DNA of 64,000 nucleotides from Burkholderiales bacterium (GCA_022841375.1 JALHRQ010000013.1:5384-69383), one strand, 5' to 3'. Numbered from the stretch's first letter, positions 3,506-32,720 are shown. A program made the numbers and translations. The notes: generated by a model from the sequence alone, not told the origin.

Positions 3506-6500
3506 AATAAACGCGATGGGTGCGCACATCGCGCTATTGACCCACGCCCCGAACGACCTGACGGTGCTGCACAGCGCACTCGCCCAATTACCACAAGATT
3601 TCCCGCCGGTTACTGGTGTCGACCTGCAGGCACTCGAGAGCGAAGCGCAGATGGCGGCGCTACTGGCGCGCGAACTTGCCGCCACACAGATCATCGTGTT
3701 ACGTGTGTTGGGCCGGCTCGGCAGCGTACCGGGTTTTGCCGAGTTGGTAGGCCAAGCCCGGAGACGGGGGCGACATTTGATCGCGATCAGCGGTACCGGA
3801 GAACCCGACCCGGAATTGGCGACTGTATCCACCGTTTCATCAGATGTGTTGCAGCAGGCGCTGACCTATTTTCAGGCAGGCGGCAGCGTGAATCTGGCGC
3901 AACTGCTGCGCTACCTGTCCGATCATCTTTTGCTGACCGGTTTCGGCTTCGAGCCGGCGCTGGCCTTGCCCGAGCATGGGCTCTATCATCCCGACTTGTC
4001 CGAAGGTGCTGGCATTGATGACTGGCTGGCCCAGCGGGTGCCGCAACGGCCCAGTGTCGGTATCGTTTTCTACCGCGCCCACTGGATGAGCGGCAACACG
4101 CGCTTTGTCGATGCGCTGGTCGACGCGCTGGAGAAGCGCGGCATGAATGTGCTGCCGGTATTCACCTCGTCGTTGCGCGCCGGAGGCGATGGCGGCGCGA
4201 CGCTGCCGACGGCGCTGCGCCATTTCAGCGGAGAGCGCGGCGCGCACATCGACGTGCTGATCAACACTACCTCGTTCGCCATGGGCGAAATCACGCCCGG
4301 CGGGCCGACCCCGGCCGGTTGGTCGGTCGGCGTGCTGGAACGACTCAATGTGCCAGTGTTGCAAGCCATCACCAGCGGCATGATGCTGGGTCAGTGGCAG
4401 CAATCGACGCGCGGCCTCAACCCGCTCGATGCGGCGATGAACGTGGTGTTGCCGGAGTTCGACGGGCGCATTATCACGGTCCCTGTGTCTTTCAAGACAC
4501 GGGCCGCCGGCATGTCCAACGAGATGGTCGAATACGAACCGCTGTCCGATCGCGTGGCGCGCGTGGCCGGGCTTGCGGCGCGCTTCGCACGACTGAAACG
4601 GATGCGCAATGCGGACAAGCGCGTAGCCTTTATTTTTACTAATTCCAACAGCAAGGCATCGCAAATTGGCAATGCGGTTGGTCTCGATGCGCCGGCATCC
4701 CTGATACACATCCTGCGCGCCATGCACGACGCCGGTTATCACATAGAGCAGTTGCCCGAGAACGGCACCGCCCTGATCCACGCGTTGATCGACCGTTGTG
4801 CCTACGATAATACATATCTCAGTGCCGAGCAGCTGACGCACGCCGTCGGACGCGTGCCTGCGGCGCAATACGCGGCGTGGTTTGACGATTTGCCACTGGA
4901 GATGCGGGAGAAGATGGCGGCGCAATGGGGGCCACCGCCGGGCGAGGCCTATGTGCATGACGATCATCTGGCGCTGGCGGGCATCGAACTGGGCAATGCT
5001 TTCGTTGCGCTGCAACCGCCGCGCGGCTACGGCATGGACCCGGACGCGATCTATCACCAGCCCGATTTACCGCCGCCCCACCATTATTACGCGCTGTATC
5101 GCTGGTTACGGGACGAGTGGCGAGCCGATGCCATCGTCCACGTCGGCAAGCACGGCACGCTCGAATGGTTGCCGGGCAAGGGTGTGGGCCTATCGGAGAA
5201 GTGTTTTCCGGATGCGTTCCTGGCGGATATGCCTTTGTTTTATCCCTTCATCATCAACGATCCCGGAGAAGGTGCGCAGGCCAAACGCCGCGCCCATGCC
5301 GTCGTACTCGATCACCTGACGCCGCCGATGACCACGGCCGATACTTATGGCGCGCTGGCCCAGTTGACTCAATTGGTGGACGAGTATTATCAGGTGGAAG
5401 TGCTCGATCCTGCAAAGCTGCCGCTGTTGCAGCAGCAGATTTGGGAGTTGGTGAAAGAAACCAACCTGGATGTGGATCTGCAGGCCACGCTGCTGCACCA
5501 TGACCATGATCACCACGACCACGATCATGACCACGATGATCATGCCCATCTTCATGACCACGCTCACGATCACAAGCATGGTCATGACCACGACCATGAT
5601 CATGACGAAGAGCTTCCCGCAGCGCTGGCAAATATGGGCGGAGTCGATGTCGCTCATCTGATCGAGGATCTCGACGGCTATTTGTGTGAGTTAGGGGCGG
5701 CACAGATCCGCGACGGCTTGCACATTCTTGGTCAAGCGCCCGAAAGCGGGCAACTGGTGGATATGCTGGCGTCGCTTACTCGCCTGCCGAATCAGGATAT
5801 TCCCGGGCTACAGGCGGAAGTGGCGCGGTTGTTTGGTTTAAAAATTGAGATGCTGTTGGAGCACAAAGGGCGTCGTTTGAATGTTGTCACCGCGCTGGCG
5901 CGCTTGGCCGAGCGGCCTGTCGTTACACGAGCCGATGCGCTTGAAGCGATTGATGTGTTGTGTCGAAAGCTGTTCGTCGAACTGCATGCGCGCGACTATC
6001 TTGAATCGAGCATAAACGAGGTATTGGATCTGATTTTTAACGGGCTCCACGCCGACGGTAGTGCAGTAAACCAGCCGCTATTGCAACCTGCGGTCCGCGT
6101 GCGTAGCAGCGTGCTTTCACAATTGAATAAGCATCGTGTAAAAGAGGGCATGGTCCGCACGGTCCCGCTTAACGTCGGCCATAAGGATGCCCTGTCGGGC
6201 GCCGATGTAGGTTACGACGCGCTACGCCGCGTACTTGGGTTTGCCTGCCGCGAGCTAGTGCCGAACCTGGGGCGCGCTTCAGACGAGATCGCTAACCTGC
6301 TGAGCGGACTGGCCGGCGGTTACGTACCGGCGGGACCCAGCGGCTCGCCGACCCGTGGCATGGCGCACATCCTGCCGACCGGGCGTAATTTTTACTCGGT
6401 CGATCCGCGAAGCGTACCCTCGCAGTCGGCCTGGCGCGTCGGCTTGCAGCTCGCGCACGAAGTGCTGACACGACATGTGCGCGAAACCGGCGGTTATCCG

Positions 6501-14431: not shown

Positions 14432-15232
14432 ATGAAAGTTTATTTCATCGGCGCCGGTCCCGGCGCTTCCGACCTGATCACGCTGCGCGGTGCCAACATA
14501 CTGGGCCGCGTCGACATGGTGCTGTACGCCGGTTCGCTGGTGCCGACTGACATGCTGCAGCATTGTCGCCAGGATGCTGAGTTGATTGATACCGCCAAGC
14601 TCGACCTCGAACAACAGGAGGCGTGTTACCGGCGTGCCCAAGGGGCTGACTACGACGTCGCGCGCCTGCACTCGGGTGATCCGGCGATCTACGGCGCGAC
14701 CGCCGAGCAAATGCGGCGACTCGATGCGCTCGGTATTGAATACGAGGTGGTGCCGGGTGTTTCGTCGTTCAGCGCAGCCGCCGCGACGGTCAAGGCTGAG
14801 TTGACCAAGCCGGAAGTATCGCAGACCATCATCCTGACCCGCGTTTCCGGTCGTGCGTCGGCGGTGCCGGAGGCGGAAGCACTTGCCAAATTGGCCGGGC
14901 ATCGCGCAACCATGTGCATCTTCCTGTCGGGGCCGCATTTAAAAAAAATCGTTACCGTCCTGCGTCTGCATTATCCAGAGGACACGCCATTGACCCTGGT
15001 CTATCGGGCTAGCTGGCCCGAGCAGCGTATCTATCAGGGAACGTTGGGTACGGTGCTGAAAGAGACTAAGCGCGGTGCCTGGAATCTGACCACCATGCTG
15101 CTGGTCGGTGCCGCACTGGGTCACGGCGAGCAGGTGGAGTCAAGTTTGTACGCAAAGGATTTTAAACACCTGTTTCGCGCTGTGAAAAAGACCAAACATA
15201 AGGCCGAAAAGACCGCAAAGGCGATAGCGTGA
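14432..15232 (+). CDS. cbiF: Precorrin-4 C11-methyltransferase (CbiF/CobM)
   Basis: GAGPGASDLITLRG, YAGSLV, RLHSGDPAIYGA and ELT.PEVSQTIILTR. Confidence 0.94.
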   Translation: MKVYFIGAGPGASDLITLRGANILGRVDMVLYAGSLVPTDMLQHCRQDAELIDTAKLDLEQQEACYRRAQGADYDVARLHSGDPAIYGATAEQMRRLDALGIEYEVVPGVSSFSAAAATVKAELTKPEVSQTIILTRVSGRASAVPEAEALAKLAGHRATMCIFLSGPHLKKIVTVLRLHYPEDTPLTLVYRASWPEQRIYQGTLGTVLKETKRGAWNLTTMLLVGAALGHGEQVESSLYAKDFKHLFRAVKKTKHKAEKTAKAIA

Positions 15233-26527: not shown

Positions 26528-26677
26528 ATGACGCAGACAGTGCAAACGCAACAACCGCCCCAAACCGCCGCCAACGCACAACCGGTCGCCCCGACCATCG
26601 CCGTGCGCAAGAGCTGCAACCCCGATGGCATTGGCCTCTCGCACTACGTGCTGATGGACAGGAAATCCGCCAAATGA
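26528..26677 (+). CDS. cbpA: 49-aa precursor peptide (CbpA-like), not in the ORF track: MTQTVQTQQPPQTAANAQPVAPTIAVRKSCNPDGIGLSHYVLMDRKSAK
   Basis: SD AGAGGAG before ATG 26528; TGA overlaps the radical SAM ATG (ATGA at 26674-26677); core IAVRKSC..DG.GLSHY.LMD resembles the CbpA family as I recall it. Confidence 0.82.
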   Translation: MTQTVQTQQPPQTAANAQPVAPTIAVRKSCNPDGIGLSHYVLMDRKSAK

Positions 26678-28098
26678 CGGCAGCAGTCCTGAAGCGGTCC
26701 GACGCCGGTCCAGCGCTTTTCCGCGTGGACATCGGCCACGATGTCTACGCGGCGGTCACCGACCCGAACACCGCCTTCTGGGCGCTGGTCGACAAGACGC
26801 GCATCGCGGAGGAACTGGCTGGCGGTCCGTTACTCGACGCCTACCGCGCCAAGGCCGACAGCTTCGCTCGCGAGTTGCACGCACTGCGGTTCGAGCTAAA
26901 GCCGTCCGGTGTCTACCTTAACCCGACGGAGCGCTGCAACCTCAACTGTACTTACTGTTACCTGCCGGATACCCAGCGCAGCGGCGGCAGCCACATGCCG
27001 CAAAAGATGCTCTTGGATTCGCTCCGGCGCCTGCGCAGCTACTTTCGGTCGGTCATGCCCGATGGGCGCAAGCCGCGCGCCATCTTCCACGGGGCCGAGC
27101 CGCTGATGAACAAGGCGGCGGTGTTCGTTGCTATTGACGAATTCGCCAACGATTTCGCCTTTGGCCTGCAGACAAACGGCACACTGCTCGACGACGCTGC
27201 GGTCGAATTCCTCACTGCGCGCAACGTCAGTATCGGCCTCTCGCTCGACGGCCCGGTGGCCGGCATCACCAACGCCACGCGCCGCACCTGGGGTGGCAAG
27301 AGCGTGCACAACAAGGTGCTGGCCGCGATGGACAGGCTCAAGGGCTACGGCTCGTGGAGTGTCATCACCACCTGCACTACGGAGAACCTGCCTTACCTGA
27401 CGAATATAGTCGAACTCTTCCACGAACGCGAAGTGCCGACCTGCATGCTCAATACGGTGCGCTGCACGCTGCCCGGCGCGCGTAGCGTCAAGCCGGCCGA
27501 CGGTGACATGGCCAAGGCTTTCTTCGCCGCCATAGACCGCACCCACTCGCTCTACCGCGAGACCGGGCGCAAGCTAATAGTCGCCAACTTCGCCAACATC
27601 CTGCTCGCCATTCTTGCCCCGACAGCGCGGCGGCTGATGTGCGACATCTCGCCCTGCGGCGGCGGCCGCGCCTTCTTCGCGCTGGCGGCGGACGGTAGTC
27701 TCTACCCGTGCAGCGAGTTCATCGGGTTGCCGCGCTTCAATGGCGGCAAGCTATTCGACGATAGCGTCGAGTGTGGAGTGGAAGCGGCGCTGGCCTCATC
27801 CGCCTTCCGCGCCGTCACTGAGCGCGACGCCGACCGCTTCTCACCCTGTGGTGAATGCGCCATCCGCCACTTCTGCGGCTCGCCATGCCCGGCCGAGGCG
27901 CACGAGATGAACGGCGGCATGGAGAAAGTCGGCGCCTTCTGCGATTTCTACAAGGAACAGGTGAGCTACGCCCTGCGCCTGATCGCTGACCGCAATGCCG
28001 ACAACTACCTGTGGGACGGCTGGGACGAGGCAACGGAAACGGTGTTCGATGTGGCCGCCTACCCGCCTGCTCACAGGCCAGAATCTCTTTGCCTTTGA
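26674..28098 (+). CDS. cbpB: Peptide-modifying radical SAM/SPASM enzyme (CbpB-like)
   Basis: CNLNCTYC; HGAEP, QTNGT and SLDGP; SPASM cysteines CDISPCGGG...YPCSEF...CGEC...CGSPCP...C; coupled to the upstream peptide. Confidence 0.85.
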   Translation: MTAAVLKRSDAGPALFRVDIGHDVYAAVTDPNTAFWALVDKTRIAEELAGGPLLDAYRAKADSFARELHALRFELKPSGVYLNPTERCNLNCTYCYLPDTQRSGGSHMPQKMLLDSLRRLRSYFRSVMPDGRKPRAIFHGAEPLMNKAAVFVAIDEFANDFAFGLQTNGTLLDDAAVEFLTARNVSIGLSLDGPVAGITNATRRTWGGKSVHNKVLAAMDRLKGYGSWSVITTCTTENLPYLTNIVELFHEREVPTCMLNTVRCTLPGARSVKPADGDMAKAFFAAIDRTHSLYRETGRKLIVANFANILLAILAPTARRLMCDISPCGGGRAFFALAADGSLYPCSEFIGLPRFNGGKLFDDSVECGVEAALASSAFRAVTERDADRFSPCGECAIRHFCGSPCPAEAHEMNGGMEKVGAFCDFYKEQVSYALRLIADRNADNYLWDGWDEATETVFDVAAYPPAHRPESLCL

Positions 28099-28676: not shown

Positions 28677-29738
28677 TTATTTCGCCGGCAGGCGGACGCT
28701 CACCAGATCCGTTCCAACGATGATGTTGCCGGCAAATCCCCCTTCCTGCGCTGACTTGCGGTAATCGGCTTCCGTCAGCGCGCCGCCCGGCAGCTTGTAA
28801 GGCCCTTGCTGCTTCGCGCCTAGCGGCGGGATCAGGTGGGTGAGCATCAGATGCTTTGCGCCGGCGCGTTTTGCCATGGCACCCAAATCGGCGGACGTGC
28901 TCTGGCGAAAATAAAAAGGCGGAGGCATGCCGCTGCCCTTGTCCGGTGCCATGACCGGATGAATCGCAGAATGCACAATCACATCGGCGCCCTTGGCGAG
29001 TTTTTCGACTTGATCCGAAGTCGAGGAAGTGCGTGGCGGTGCAAACACGTCGTTGCCGGCGTCACCGCCGATGACGACACTGCCCGCGGGAGTATCCACG
29101 CGATAGGAGGCATGACCCGGTATGTGCGTTGAGCGGATCGCGCTGACCTTGACGTCGCCGGACGACCAGACCTGCTGCGGCTCGTCTTTGGGTTCGAAGG
29201 CAATGGTATTGATTAACGCTGCCGGGCCACCTTCGGGACGTGTTTTGTCTTCCGAGTAGCGCTGGGCAATTTCGCCAGACTTGAGGTAGGCGTCGGCGAT
29301 ATGCGCCGCGAATTTCGAGCAACTGACGCCATAACCCTGCGGTGACGGCTGATCGGCGCTGCAGACCATGTCGAGCTTCGGGGCCTTGGCGCTGAAGTGC
29401 CAGCGTACCTGCACGAGGTCGGCAAAACCATCGGCGTGATCCGAATGCATGTGGGTAAAGAACACCGCATTGATCTGCGCCGGCGTCACACCGAGCTGCG
29501 ACAGTCGCATGCTGGTGCCGCGCCCCGCGTCGAACTGCAGCCTTACTGCGCCGCAATCATTGCTGTCGTCGCCGTAGCGCACCAGCGTTCCGGAACCGGC
29601 GAGTCCGTTAAAGACGGAAGGTCCGCCCTGGGTGCCTGTCAAAGTCACAATCAGGCAGGGTGCTGCCGCAACCGTCGATGCCGGTCCTGCCAGCCAGAAA
29701 ATCCCCACGAGCGACAGCGAAATCAATATTTTTTTCAT
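28677..29738 (-). CDS. Exported MBL-fold metallohydrolase (RNase Z/arylsulfatase-like)
   Basis: Signal peptide MKKILISLSLVG...AAAP with SD GGAGGAG; THMHSDH, DAGRG, GGDAG and LTHL. Confidence 0.85.
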   Translation of the reverse strand: MKKILISLSLVGIFWLAGPASTVAAAPCLIVTLTGTQGGPSVFNGLAGSGTLVRYGDDSNDCGAVRLQFDAGRGTSMRLSQLGVTPAQINAVFFTHMHSDHADGFADLVQVRWHFSAKAPKLDMVCSADQPSPQGYGVSCSKFAAHIADAYLKSGEIAQRYSEDKTRPEGGPAALINTIAFEPKDEPQQVWSSGDVKVSAIRSTHIPGHASYRVDTPAGSVVIGGDAGNDVFAPPRTSSTSDQVEKLAKGADVIVHSAIHPVMAPDKGSGMPPPFYFRQSTSADLGAMAKRAGAKHLMLTHLIPPLGAKQQGPYKLPGGALTEADYRKSAQEGGFAGNIIVGTDLVSVRLPAK

Positions 29739-29836: not shown

Positions 29837-30403
29837 TCATGCGGATGCGCGTTTTTGCTTGAGAAAGGCATCGAACTCCCCCTGCTTGGCCGACAAGGTC
29901 TTCAGCCAGCGCTGGCCGCCGAAGGTAAAGCCGATCCAGTAACCGATTTCAACAATCTCGGCTTCATTGAACTCGCCTTTCAGCTGCGCCCACAACGCAT
30001 CGTCAGCCTGGTTGGGGTCGTACATGATGGCGTCGGCATAACGCAGCGCGATTTTTTCGCGAGCCGTAAACTTTTCGGATTTTTCGTATTGCATCAACTC
30101 GAACATCCGGTCATTCGCATCCCGCGCGGACCGCGCGGTTCCCTGATTGCTTCAGTAGCCGCATTCGATGGTGTGTGCGACGTACGCTCTCAGTAGTTCC
30201 TTGAGGTCGTGTTCGACAATGCCGGCGCCGTTGTCAAAAAGCATCTCGCGGGTGAGCGTGAATGAGCGCATGACATCCGGCTGGTGCGCACGGATCGCCT
30301 GGTTTTCGGGGCCCGGTCGCCCCGCGGCGACTGCGCTGTCCAGCCAGCCGCGGATCTGCGGGTCGGCAATGGTCTCGGGATCAACGTAACTCAAACGCGC
30401 CAT
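29837..30403 (-). CDS. AhpD/carboxymuconolactone decarboxylase-family protein, 188 aa with in-frame TGA at codon 84 (putative selenocysteine, CGYU)
   Basis: ORFs 30152..30667 and 29837..30106 are in one frame, separated only by TGA at 30152-30154; HTIECGY-U-SNQG forms CxxU; downstream REKIALRYADA..D..L...F.EAEIVEI is CMD-like; hairpin after the TGA. Confidence 0.78.
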
Positions 30404-30459
30404 CAGGGGCCTCCATGCTTTTGTTTGATCAATAGTGGGTTGGTATTGGAATGGGTGTT

Positions 30460-31176
30460 TTACCGCCGGGCTGAAACGTTCTCCGGGGTTTGTGCCAGCA
30501 GTCGCATCAGTTCGGCGGCGCCGCGACGGGCTTCGTCCCGGGTGGCGGCTTCTGCCGCTGCCGCATCGCGGTTGCGAATCGCCGACCAGATGGTCTTGAG
30601 CCCATCGATGGCTTCCTGCGGGCGGGTCGATGAGCGCTGCGGGTGGGTCATGCCGATGGCGCGCCATTGCCGGATGCGTGACTGCAATGTGGCGAGCATG
30701 GCGGGCAGCGAAGGGCTGCGCGAGCCGCTGACCAGAAGGTCATAAAATCGGTTCTTGCCTTCGAGGGCTCCCACGGCATCGCCGATTTCATAAGCTTTGA
30801 TGGCCTCGGTTGCGGCCTGATCCAGCAGGTGCAGGTTTTTGGCATCGGCTTTTTCGGCGAACGACCTTGCCGCAAGACCTTCAAGAACAGCGCGAATGGC
30901 ATACAGATCTTCAATTTCGTCTGTGCTGAGTTCGCGCACGATGGGCCCGCGGTTGGGGATCACCGTAATCAGGCCTTCGGATTCCAGTTGCCGCAGCGCT
31001 TCTCGGACAAGTGTTCGTGATACGCCCAGGCTGAGCGTCAGTTCCCGTTCCGTCAGCCGTTGGCCGGGACGGAACTGGCCCTTGATGATGGCCTCTCTTA
31101 TGGCGTGTTCAACCTGTTGGCGCAGCGGGGCTGCGTGTTTTGCGATTTCGAGCAGTGGCGTAGCGGGCATGGCCAT
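30460..31176 (-). CDS. GntR family transcriptional regulator (FCD domain)
   Basis: G.F.PGQRLTEREL..LGVSRT.VREALRQLE.EGL...PNRG; DLYAIRAVLEG. Confidence 0.93.
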   Translation of the reverse strand: MAMPATPLLEIAKHAAPLRQQVEHAIREAIIKGQFRPGQRLTERELTLSLGVSRTLVREALRQLESEGLITVIPNRGPIVRELSTDEIEDLYAIRAVLEGLAARSFAEKADAKNLHLLDQAATEAIKAYEIGDAVGALEGKNRFYDLLVSGSRSPSLPAMLATLQSRIRQWRAIGMTHPQRSSTRPQEAIDGLKTIWSAIRNRDAAAAEAATRDEARRGAAELMRLLAQTPENVSARR

Positions 31177-31632: not shown

Positions 31633-32139
31633 TTATTTTTGCGAACGATCACCGGAAGAATTCTGCAGCGCCATTCGCAGCCGTCGCAGCTTCGCGACGT
31701 CGAGTTTGTCCGAATCGCGTGTGGTTTCCTTGCTCTTGATCAGCCCGTCCAGGCTCAGCGTTGAAACCTTGCCGCCATTGAAGTCATGGTGTTCGAGGAA
31801 TTTCCGGAACGCATTGAATTTCAGGTCGTTTGCGACAAACAGGATGTCGATCGCAATATCGCCTTCGACCGCTGTCGAATAGCCCTTGTCCAGGCTTTCG
31901 ATCGCCAATCCCTGAAGCGCTTCCTGATTAAATGGAAGTTCCATGAGCGCCGCCCGGAGTTTCCTGTTGTTGCCGCGGCTCAACGGCAGCAGCAGATCGA
32001 TGTCCTTGGTGGCTCTCGGGAAACCATGAAACATCATGGCGGTTCCGCCAATGACGGCGTATTTGACGCCGTGATCGTTCAGCGCTTTCGCGAGCGCGCC
32101 AAGATCATCCGGTGTCGGTAACCGCCGCTCCGTCGTCAA
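31633..32139 (-). CDS. Nucleotidyltransferase (polbeta-like, DUF6036/AbiEii-like)
   Basis: YAVIGGTAM..HGFPRATKDIDLL, IDIL and LIKSK..R..DKLD. Confidence 0.8.
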   Translation of the reverse strand: MTTERRLPTPDDLGALAKALNDHGVKYAVIGGTAMMFHGFPRATKDIDLLLPLSRGNNRKLRAALMELPFNQEALQGLAIESLDKGYSTAVEGDIAIDILFVANDLKFNAFRKFLEHHDFNGGKVSTLSLDGLIKSKETTRDSDKLDVAKLRRLRMALQNSSGDRSQK

Positions 32140-32720
32140 GCGTTTGCCCGCGCGTGTCGAAGCGCGCGCTCCAGTTCAAGGTCTTCGTCGCGCTGGTTTT
32201 TTTCGGCCATCGATTTGAAATACAAAATACCGGGGCGAGCCGATTCCGGTGACAGGATGCTGTTGGCGCGCGCCTGCAGCCGCCCAAAGCGGGCGGCGAG
32301 GGCGCGACCACGCCGCTTCGCCGGCATCTGCAGCAGCGCCAGCGCTGCGTTGAGTTCGCGCTGATCCTGGTCGCCGTAACGGAGGCGGGCTTCGGGCAAT
32401 TCTTTGTTGCTGGCCGTCGATGCGCCCGCCCCGATAAACAAGGCGGAGAGCGGGCCGAGCAGCGGGTTGCCGCGGGGCGCACGGAACGTCGGATGTGAAT
32501 CCCCCTCGACGCGCTCGCATAAACCGACCAGAGCCAGTCGCTTCAGCAACTTGGATGCATTGCCGGGATCCACCTGAGCGGTGCTCGCCAGACGGCGCAG
32601 CGGTAGTGCGCGGTCTGGCTGCTCGTACAGGGTTCGAAGGATGCGATAGCGCTCGTCGCTTCCGAAAACTTCCCGCAGGATGGCGTCGGCGTTTATTTTC
32701 ATGATGTTGATTATAGGCAT
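32136..32720 (-). CDS. Winged-helix DNA-binding protein with a short C-terminal helical domain (antitoxin-like)
   Basis: VFGS..RYRIL..LY..P...LRRLA....VDPGNASKLLKRL..VGL; 4-bp overlap with the nucleotidyltransferase. Confidence 0.65.
   Translation of the reverse strand: MPIINIMKINADAILREVFGSDERYRILRTLYEQPDRALPLRRLASTAQVDPGNASKLLKRLALVGLCERVEGDSHPTFRAPRGNPLLGPLSALFIGAGASTASNKELPEARLRYGDQDQRELNAALALLQMPAKRRGRALAARFGRLQARANSILSPESARPGILYFKSMAEKNQRDEDLELERALRHARANA

Follow-up and report, generated by a model that had tools for sequence, protein, structure and literature searches.

The closest described system for the gene reported here is the AhpD-like selenoprotein family, which was first reported in 2005, from Sargasso Sea data, with a CxxU motif (COG2128), 27 sequences, SECIS elements and Cys homologs (PMC1088965). 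In the GOS survey, 'AhpD-like 1' ranks fourth among the families by number, with 299 Sec forms and 902 Cys forms (PMC2398784). Moreover two reviews, of 2022 and 2026, include the family (PMC9312934 and PMC13188914, respectively), the latter under TIGR01926, and it appears as the worked example in the account of BSepDB (PMC13326102). As for the active site, the hairpin of AhpD-like proteins is described as carrying a five-residue proton relay of Glu, Cys, His/Tyr, Cys and His, of which both Cys and the final His are invariant in AhpD-like structures, this His being reported as essential; the spacing from Glu to Cys is seen, for example, in Glu36 and Cys48 of PA0269 and in Glu118 and Cys130 of M. 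tuberculosis AhpD (PMC3141380). The decoding signal is defined, in the legend to Fig. 2 of the 2026 review, by a bacterial SECIS (bSECIS) model with an apical loop of 3-9 nt that has a G among its first two nucleotides (the usual pattern being N1-G-[G/U]-N-N2), a stem of 4-16 bp, 16-37 nt between UGA and loop, and an MFE <= -7.5 kcal/mol (PMC13188914). For the Betaproteobacteria, the tally of a 2006 survey gives one selenoprotein family only, namely FdhA (PMC1794560).

Herein we describe a gene in a window of 64,000 nucleotides, the whole stretch of DNA analysed, from a Burkholderiales bacterium. It resembles the AhpD-like selenoprotein family in its CxxU motif, where Sec takes the second Cys position, in a SECIS-like element of bacterial type right after the UGA and in its many Cys homologs. 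Judging from the sequences compared below, we consider it very probable that the gene is intact and encodes a single selenoprotein of 188 residues with the AhpD/CMD fold, the TGA at codon 84 being read as selenocysteine.

The gene and its in-frame TGA

The gene is on the minus strand, where one frame of 188 codons can be read directly from the sequence at 30403..29840, with the stop at 29837-29839, and the sole break in this frame is the TGA at 30152-30154 (minus strand), which is codon 84; the plus-strand translation of the same coordinates gives no gene. The read-through product has 188 residues with the local sequence H-T-I-E-C-G-Y-U-S-N-Q-G. In the table-11 ORF list the same region is represented by two fragments, 30152..30667 (minus), ending in ECGY, and 29837..30106 (minus). 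A preliminary description of the locus had taken these two fragments as one frame broken only by the TGA, had placed this TGA at the second Cys of the AhpD CxxC motif (IECGY-U-SNQG), and had located a hairpin 13 nt after it with the loop 19 nt after the UGA; all of these positions were verified, on the minus strand, and codon 84 does align with Cys in the homologs considered below. The features are as follows.

29837..30403, minus strand: whole gene, AhpD-like (COG2128/YciW-type), with the C81-G-Y-U84 motif; 188 codons and the terminal TGA
30410..30414, minus strand: Shine-Dalgarno-like GGAGG, 6 nt 5' of the ATG (30403-30401), from the sequence
30197..30199, minus strand: codon 69, Glu, 12 residues ahead of C81, which is the relay-Glu spacing of AhpD-like proteins; invariant in the alignment (n=46)
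30161..30163, minus strand: codon 81, TGC, first Cys of the CxxU redox motif; Cys in 120/120 homologs and 25/25 Sec forms
30152..30154, minus strand: codon 84, TGA, putative selenocysteine codon, from the conservation of the TGA and the Cys in homologs
30122..30138, minus strand: SECIS-like hairpin, from pairing, covariation, MFE and synonymous constraint
29837..29839, minus strand: terminal TGA, read as stop, with no stable structure 3' of it

The two UGA codons of the gene differ in what follows them, as the MFE over the next 60 nt is -4.7 kcal/mol for the terminal UGA versus -17.4 kcal/mol after codon 84.

In a six-frame search over 61 genomes, 37 of them from the same genus, ortholog-level matches (78-96% identity, E <= 1e-98) were obtained in 23 of these 37, counting the genome of the window itself, and every one of the matches was flagged with an internal TGA. 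In one further genome of the genus the match is truncated by the end of its contig, and in the other 13 of the 37, several of which are only 69-84% complete, the same query found no ortholog. Codon-by-codon reading covered 20 of the 23 orthologs, the other three being flagged '1 TGA'. All 20 start with ATG, have TGA at codon 84, and reach a second stop at codon 186-193, which is TGA in 16 and TAA in 4; moreover the stretch E-C-G-Y-U-S-N-Q-G-T-A-R-S-A is unchanged in every one of them. Outside the genus, the equivalent codon is again TGA in all five further Sec forms, which come from two other families of the order. Since TGA is the usual terminator of this very gene in the orthologs, the codon has not been reassigned in the lineage.

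The database homologs give the other half of the pairing. Among the best 120 full-length ones (51-63% identity), the codon-84 column holds Cys in 120/120, so that the preliminary description, which had proposed to look for either Cys or TGA at this codon in homologs, is answered by both. Cys81, Tyr83 and Gly88 are likewise common to all 120, and the residues after the TGA match those of the Cys homologs, for instance S85 in 88/120, N86 in 90/120, Q87 in 111/120 and G88 in 120/120. Because the Cys homologs share the residues that are encoded just after the TGA, translation is taken to continue in frame. Five of the 120 homologs carry an NCBI taxon name, four of them Acidimicrobiia and one Actinomycetota.

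Selection on the two parts of the gene points in the same direction. The mean pN/pS among the 20 orthologs is 0.139 for codons 1-83 versus 0.166 for codons 85-175, and these orthologs are without indels up to about codon 177. As the two values are similar, the downstream part is under the same protein-level selection as the upstream part.

The hairpin and the Sec machinery

The hairpin after codon 84, CCGCGC-GGUCC-GCGCGG (30138-30122), has a 6-bp stem and the loop GGUCC, or else 7 bp and the loop GUC; 13 nt separate it from the UGA, and its loop is reached 19 nt after that codon (20 nt for the form with the 3-nt loop). The preliminary description had called it SECIS-like, and this is borne out both by the bSECIS model, as the loop of 5 nt (GGUCN), the stem of 6 bp and the spacing of 19 nt fall within every published limit, and by covariation across 25 sequences. 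These 25 sequences, which make up the hairpin alignment, are the 20 same-genus orthologs and the five Sec forms from two other families. The core MFE ranges from -9.2 to -11.9 kcal/mol in 20/20 orthologs. All 150 stem cells are paired (100%) across the alignment, and when the 3' arm is slid by 1-3 columns as a control the pairing falls to 17-62%. At pair 33-47 there are 21 CG, 2 AU and 2 UA, at pair 36-44 there are 24 GC and 1 AU (n=25), and the covariation score was reached by none of 500 shuffles. In fact the compensatory changes consist of an A-U pair in the sisters L025 and L026, a U-A pair in the sisters L038 and L041, which stand elsewhere in the genus on the protein tree, and an A-U at another pair in L077, and are therefore counted as three independent events. 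Two stem pairs out of six, with three events between them, carry the covariation, the other four pairs being invariant and for this purpose uninformative. Moreover synonymous divergence is halved over codons 85-100, with pS 0.29 versus 0.60 in codons 101-175, as expected where selection acts on an RNA structure as well as on the protein. In the Cys-form paralogs, which have a TGC codon, a qualifying hairpin at <= -7.5 kcal/mol was found at the equivalent place in 0/5; three have none, and two have only hairpins of -3.9 and -4.7 kcal/mol.

Taken by itself, a hairpin of this kind is weak evidence, and the comparative data carry the weight. In the G+C-rich window, 74 of 1970 TGA trinucleotides (3.8%) precede a comparable hairpin, as defined by an ungapped stem of >= 6 bp, a G early in the loop, a distance of 16-37 nt and -9.2 kcal/mol or better, and the 63-nt fold is no more stable than its shuffles (z = -0.63). 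Among five hairpin-positive TGA sites that were checked for their frame, only the codon-84 site is open on both sides, with 195 codons upstream and 104 downstream. The sites at 14433 (plus), 35902 (minus), 36366 (plus) and 8166 (plus) have no open frame across the TGA and were set aside as chance hairpins. Conservation, covariation and the Cys/TGA pairing together put the codon-84 site far beyond chance.

Compared with the bSECIS of the E. coli fdhF type, as it is characterised in the 2026 review, the element here is alike in lying directly 3' of the UGA within the coding region, in its small apical loop that fits N1-G-[G/U]-N-N2, in its spacing of 19 nt and in its MFE below -7.5 kcal/mol (PMC13188914). 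It differs in being a short perfect G+C stem of 6-7 bp without a conserved lower stem or bulge, and the binding of SelB to it is predicted. A lower stem CUGA/UCAG around the UGA, as drawn in the MFE fold, was considered and rejected: it is not conserved, column 24 being T or C, and RNAalifold gives a different, invariant mini-stem.

The genome encodes the whole machinery for decoding UGA as selenocysteine, as listed here by contig.

Contig C3: tRNA-Sec (selC), called by ARAGORN as SeC with anticodon tca; 75.9 bits versus a cut-off of 47
Contig C3, adjoining selC: selB; 421 bits versus a cut-off of 242
Contig C3, adjoining selC: selA; 577 bits versus a cut-off of 268
Contig C15: selD, itself with one in-frame TGA; 419 bits versus a cut-off of 125

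The preliminary description had suggested looking for selA, selB, selC and selD, and had named as evidence against its proposal a genome without Sec machinery and homologs having a non-Cys residue or never TGA at this position. What was found is the opposite on each count, as all four genes are present, each over its curated cut-off, and the homologs have Cys or TGA at codon 84. Moreover two more AhpD-like paralogs are present on contigs C8 and C12, which are 27-41% identical over the aligned parts and read C-H-Y-TGA at the motif, and each has a hairpin with GGUC in the loop 19-21 nt after the UGA. By sequence comparison, the genome appears to hold at least three AhpD-like Sec genes and a Sec-containing SelD.

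From the anatomy of the gene and the known bacterial pathway, we infer how the decoding would proceed. SelB, loaded with Sec-tRNA(Sec), would bind to the apical GGUC loop of the 17-nt hairpin that begins 13 nt after the codon-84 UGA, and would then deliver selenocysteine to the ribosome instead of termination, while the last UGA of the gene, which is without a hairpin, would terminate normally.

Protein family, active site and distribution

All three curated models that bear on the family recognise the protein below their own cut-offs, yet its kinship with the family is significant. The Pfam CMD model (PF02627) gives 17.2 bits versus a gathering threshold of 23, and 25 of 46 subfamily members match it at E <= 1e-3, the best at 2e-8; TIGR01926, the model under which the known AhpD-like selenoproteins are listed, gives 28.6 bits versus a cut-off of 81.8 (E 1.1e-6), with 34 of 46 members matching at E <= 1e-3. 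The best-scoring curated model is NF053654, 'YciW-related (seleno)protein', with E 1.1e-14 and an alignment that spans residues 1-159, and it is matched by 46/46 members at E <= 1e-3. It describes a YciW-type protein that is marked by NCBI as occurring in Sec form, which is a point of likeness; the score of 54.6 bits is far under its equivalog cut-off of 310, and argues for a different clade of the same superfamily.

The fold was approached from both sequence and model. A profile of the subfamily searched against the PDB matched only chains of the AhpD/CMD type, namely Bmp8 (9.9e-8), Atu0492, PA0269, peroxidase-related proteins and AhpD. The AlphaFold model has a pLDDT of 90.3 and a pTM of 0.88; its fold is the all-helical one of AhpD/CMD proteins, and the motif is placed within their conserved two-helix hairpin. 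In Foldseek the best rows are all AhpD/CMD proteins, the best having E 2.5e-3, and there is no match at E <= 1e-3, for which reason the assignment of the fold relies on VIA-align together with the sequence profile. The motif is that of the known family, C81-G-Y-U84, with Sec at the position of the second Cys.

At the active site, Glu69, Cys81, Tyr83 and Sec84 match the spacing of the proton relay, E69 being invariant (n=46) and Y83 being found in 120/120. The last member of the relay is different. The position of the relay His, residue 88, is Gly in 120/120 homologs and in 24/25 Sec forms, the preceding position 87 is Gln in 111/120, and no His is found within 7 residues; the Sec forms read U-S-N-Q-G-T-A. 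Elsewhere in the sequence one His, His40, is almost invariant. In M. tuberculosis AhpD and P. aeruginosa PA0269, by contrast, His137 and His55, respectively, stand four residues after the second Cys, where the present protein has Gly88 (PMC3141380). The protein further differs from these two enzymes in having Sec in place of the second Cys, and no AhpC or peroxiredoxin gene lies nearby among the ORFs scanned. With respect to the known AhpD-like selenoproteins, the differences are that the TIGR01926 cut-off is missed and that Gln87-Gly88 occupy the usual His site of that family. The assignment to the AhpD/CMD family in the preliminary description hence holds as regards the fold and the CxxC/U motif, but not as regards the relay His of a true AhpD, which is absent. 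From its profile matches and its motif, the protein is best placed in the AhpD-like/YciW superfamily and not with canonical AhpD, and, as an invariant Gly takes the place of the relay His, it is unlikely to be an AhpC-recycling AhpD of the classical kind. The same replacement makes a peroxidase-type function uncertain.

Sec84 would take the place of Cys at the last position of a C-x-Y-C redox motif, within the two-helix hairpin that also holds Glu69, and this setting makes a selenol/thiol oxidoreductase, cycling via a Cys81-Sec84 selenenylsulfide, the most likely kind of enzyme.

The genomic neighbourhood was compared among related loci. Directly upstream of the gene is a GntR/FCD regulator (30460-31176, minus strand), and the same arrangement is seen in 9 of 31 related loci; downstream is a secreted MBL-fold hydrolase (28677-29738, minus strand), which is full length in 2 of 31. 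TctC receptors, Zn-dependent dehydrogenases or an MFS transporter flank the gene at other loci. A conserved operon was considered and dismissed on these counts, and the context gives no functional support. Among 23 neighbouring ORFs (6 in the window, and 17 that flank 9 related loci) none has a peroxiredoxin domain; an AhpD need not be encoded next to AhpC.

As to the distribution, 301 genomes of the order were sampled, and ortholog-level Sec forms were found in 7 of them, belonging to three genera in three families; a second Sec group, 44-48% identical, accounts for 4 hits, and the overall tally of 15/301 includes one genome, G238, that has a Cys paralog only. A quick maximum-likelihood tree was calculated from 69 rows, comprising the 25 Sec forms, 4 Cys paralogs and 40 of the 120 Cys homologs (every third one), with the Sec column masked, the Cys paralogs L078-L081 as outgroup and SH-aLRT as the only support measure. 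In this tree the 25 Sec forms make up a single clade, with an SH-aLRT of 99, that lies within the Cys forms, and long branches meet at its base. As Sec forms of other phyla would be invisible in the protein database, the one clade need not mean a single origin.

The closest solved relative by sequence is Bmp8 (PDB 6ohi, 6ohj), which bears the name debrominase in its PDB titles and is taken to be thiol-dependent. It is 15-18% identical, and its E-value is barely better than those of uncharacterised AhpD-like proteins; moreover Bmp8 retains a His after the motif in the profile alignment, where the present protein has Gly. It is because of this relative that a dehalogenase comes into view. The scenario, as a whole, would be that the Sec clade originated a single time inside the Cys family (Acidimicrobiia, where members are named) and later reached three Burkholderiales families, and that the protein, having lost the relay His on which all characterised AhpD-like peroxidases depend, is not a peroxide or AhpC reductase but a selenium-dependent small-molecule reductase, for example a Sec-based reductive dehalogenase; we give only a slim chance to the two parts being true together.

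Alternative readings, annotation and implications

The public gene calls treat the locus quite differently from the reading given here. Among shorter database proteins, 1149 match the gene, and the best 120 of these consist of 43 N-terminal pieces ending in C-x-Y and 77 C-terminal pieces that begin at downstream Met codons. In 35 of the 43 N-terminal pieces the length is exactly 83 residues and the end is E-C-G-Y. The short pieces are named 'hypothetical protein' or 'alkylhydroperoxidase family enzyme', the latter being the JGI name for the Cys homologs and for C-terminal pieces, and presumably the name of COG2128. The preliminary description had foreseen that annotation would split the gene, and the public calls do give pieces of about 83 and about 89 residues.

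Contigs from four freshwater RNA libraries, from four studies, bridge the TGA, with 30152-30154 unchanged; they are 89-96% alike and therefore come from relatives. The RNA runs contain only 5-9% of the sampled words, and parts of the gene left uncovered are uninformative. As contigs from RNA libraries may derive from contaminating DNA, they give a weak hint of transcription across the TGA.

If the gene callers were right, the UGA would terminate, and the locus would be either a pseudogene or a split gene giving an 83-residue N-terminal piece and perhaps an 89-residue piece from Met101. Such a reading draws on the 43 N-terminal and 77 C-terminal pieces among the best 120 short hits, and on the presence of Met101 in 20/20 orthologs; it is nevertheless very improbable in view of the comparative data, as the TGA is kept at one codon across 25 genomes of three families, selection downstream (pN/pS 0.166) is as strong as upstream (0.139), and codons 85-88, which termination would leave untranslated, encode the S-N-Q-G that is conserved in the Cys homologs. 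Moreover no Shine-Dalgarno-like sequence is found ahead of Met101, and the stop would have to fall exactly on the catalytic Cys and then be followed by a covarying hairpin. An in-frame TGA might also arise from an error of sequencing or assembly, which is worth considering for a metagenome-derived genome assembled in 66 contigs. The same TGA is, however, present in 24 other independently assembled genomes and in the contigs of the four RNA libraries, and hundreds of independently called database fragments end at C-x-Y; the chance of such an error is vanishingly small, and we count this reading as refuted.

A subtler possibility accepts read-through of the UGA but without selenocysteine: the codon would be decoded by a near-cognate standard tRNA (for Trp, Cys or Arg), or the genetic code would be altered. 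In fact, the continuity of the frame and its conservation do not by themselves identify the inserted residue. What speaks against it is that TGA is the ordinary terminator of this gene in 16/20 orthologs, with the code not reassigned, that the complete selA-selB-selC-selD set is present, that the site is a redox Cys position typical of Sec/Cys pairs, as in the description of the family (PMC1088965), and that the spacing of the hairpin and its G-containing loop are those of SelB-binding elements. We regard a standard-tRNA reading as highly unlikely, and insertion of selenocysteine at codon 84 remains by far the preferred interpretation.

The kind of selenoprotein, the motif and the decoding mechanism are all known already, so that this gene mainly corrects annotation; slightly new are the clade without the relay His and the extent of the mis-annotation. 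Relative to the 2006 survey, it is new that one betaproteobacterial genome would have three paralogous Sec genes with GGUC-loop hairpins. Such a trio of paralogous hairpins sharing the GGUC loop may serve as a compact natural substrate set for SelB recognition. If the dehalogenase proposal were true, a Sec-based dehalogenase would be a bacterial counterpart to the strategy of the deiodinases, built on another fold. More generally, the selenoproteome of uncultured freshwater Burkholderiales would be under-counted, as public calls cut this gene in two.

Further predicted selenoprotein genes of the genome

In the genome from which the window derives (GCA_022841375.1), AhpD-like paralogs of the selenoprotein gene and a selD gene are found on other contigs, all of them outside the window:

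C8, 167374-167886, minus strand: AhpD-like paralog in the Sec form, with C-H-Y-TGA at the redox motif
C12, 42983-43348, minus strand: AhpD-like paralog in the Sec form, with C-H-Y-TGA at the redox motif
C20, 16158-16661: AhpD-like paralog in the Cys form
C15, 11228-12157, minus strand: selD, interrupted in frame by one TGA (context G-G-G-U-G-C)

In both Sec-form paralogs a GGUC-loop hairpin lies 19-21 nt past the UGA. As to selD, a hairpin with a GUU loop lies downstream of its in-frame TGA, and from these two sequence features together SelD of this genome is itself predicted to be a selenoprotein.

Other genes and repeats in the window

Several other features of the window are recorded here:

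26674-28098, plus strand: radical SAM protein of 474 residues with Cys-rich C-terminal motifs
31633-32720, minus strand: adjacent gene pair, made up of the following two genes
31633-32139, minus strand: AbiEii/DUF6036-type nucleotidyltransferase
32136-32720, minus strand: MarR-like winged-helix protein
about 5540-5610, minus strand: run of GUGGUCAUGAUC-like repeat units

The radical SAM gene and the selenoprotein gene are two genes apart and lie on opposite strands. The ends of the MarR-like and nucleotidyltransferase genes overlap by 4 nt, and the two together resemble an AbiE-like toxin-antitoxin system of type IV. The repeat units, known only from matches in the TGA/hairpin control scan, form very stable hairpins of 14-18 bp (to -21.6 kcal/mol).

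Conservation and spread of the Sec gene

Within the subfamily of P0001, the 188-residue product of the selenoprotein gene, His40 (30284-30286, minus strand) is nearly invariant (90% or more), and this residue might be a three-dimensional substitute for the missing canonical relay His.

Some public records with orthologs 77-85% identical (L053, L058 and L069) bear titles that name Bordetella parapertussis, uncultured Bordetella or Streptomycetaceae, although the records are environmental MAGs. The names seem to have been given by automatic taxonomic assignment and seem not to denote real pathogens or actinomycetes.

Two further families of the order also have Sec-form orthologs (L073-L076, in genomes G201, G285, G109 and G153), with an identity of 73-80%. 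This is comparable to that of some same-genus orthologs (78%), a hint that the Sec gene has moved horizontally among Burkholderiales families.
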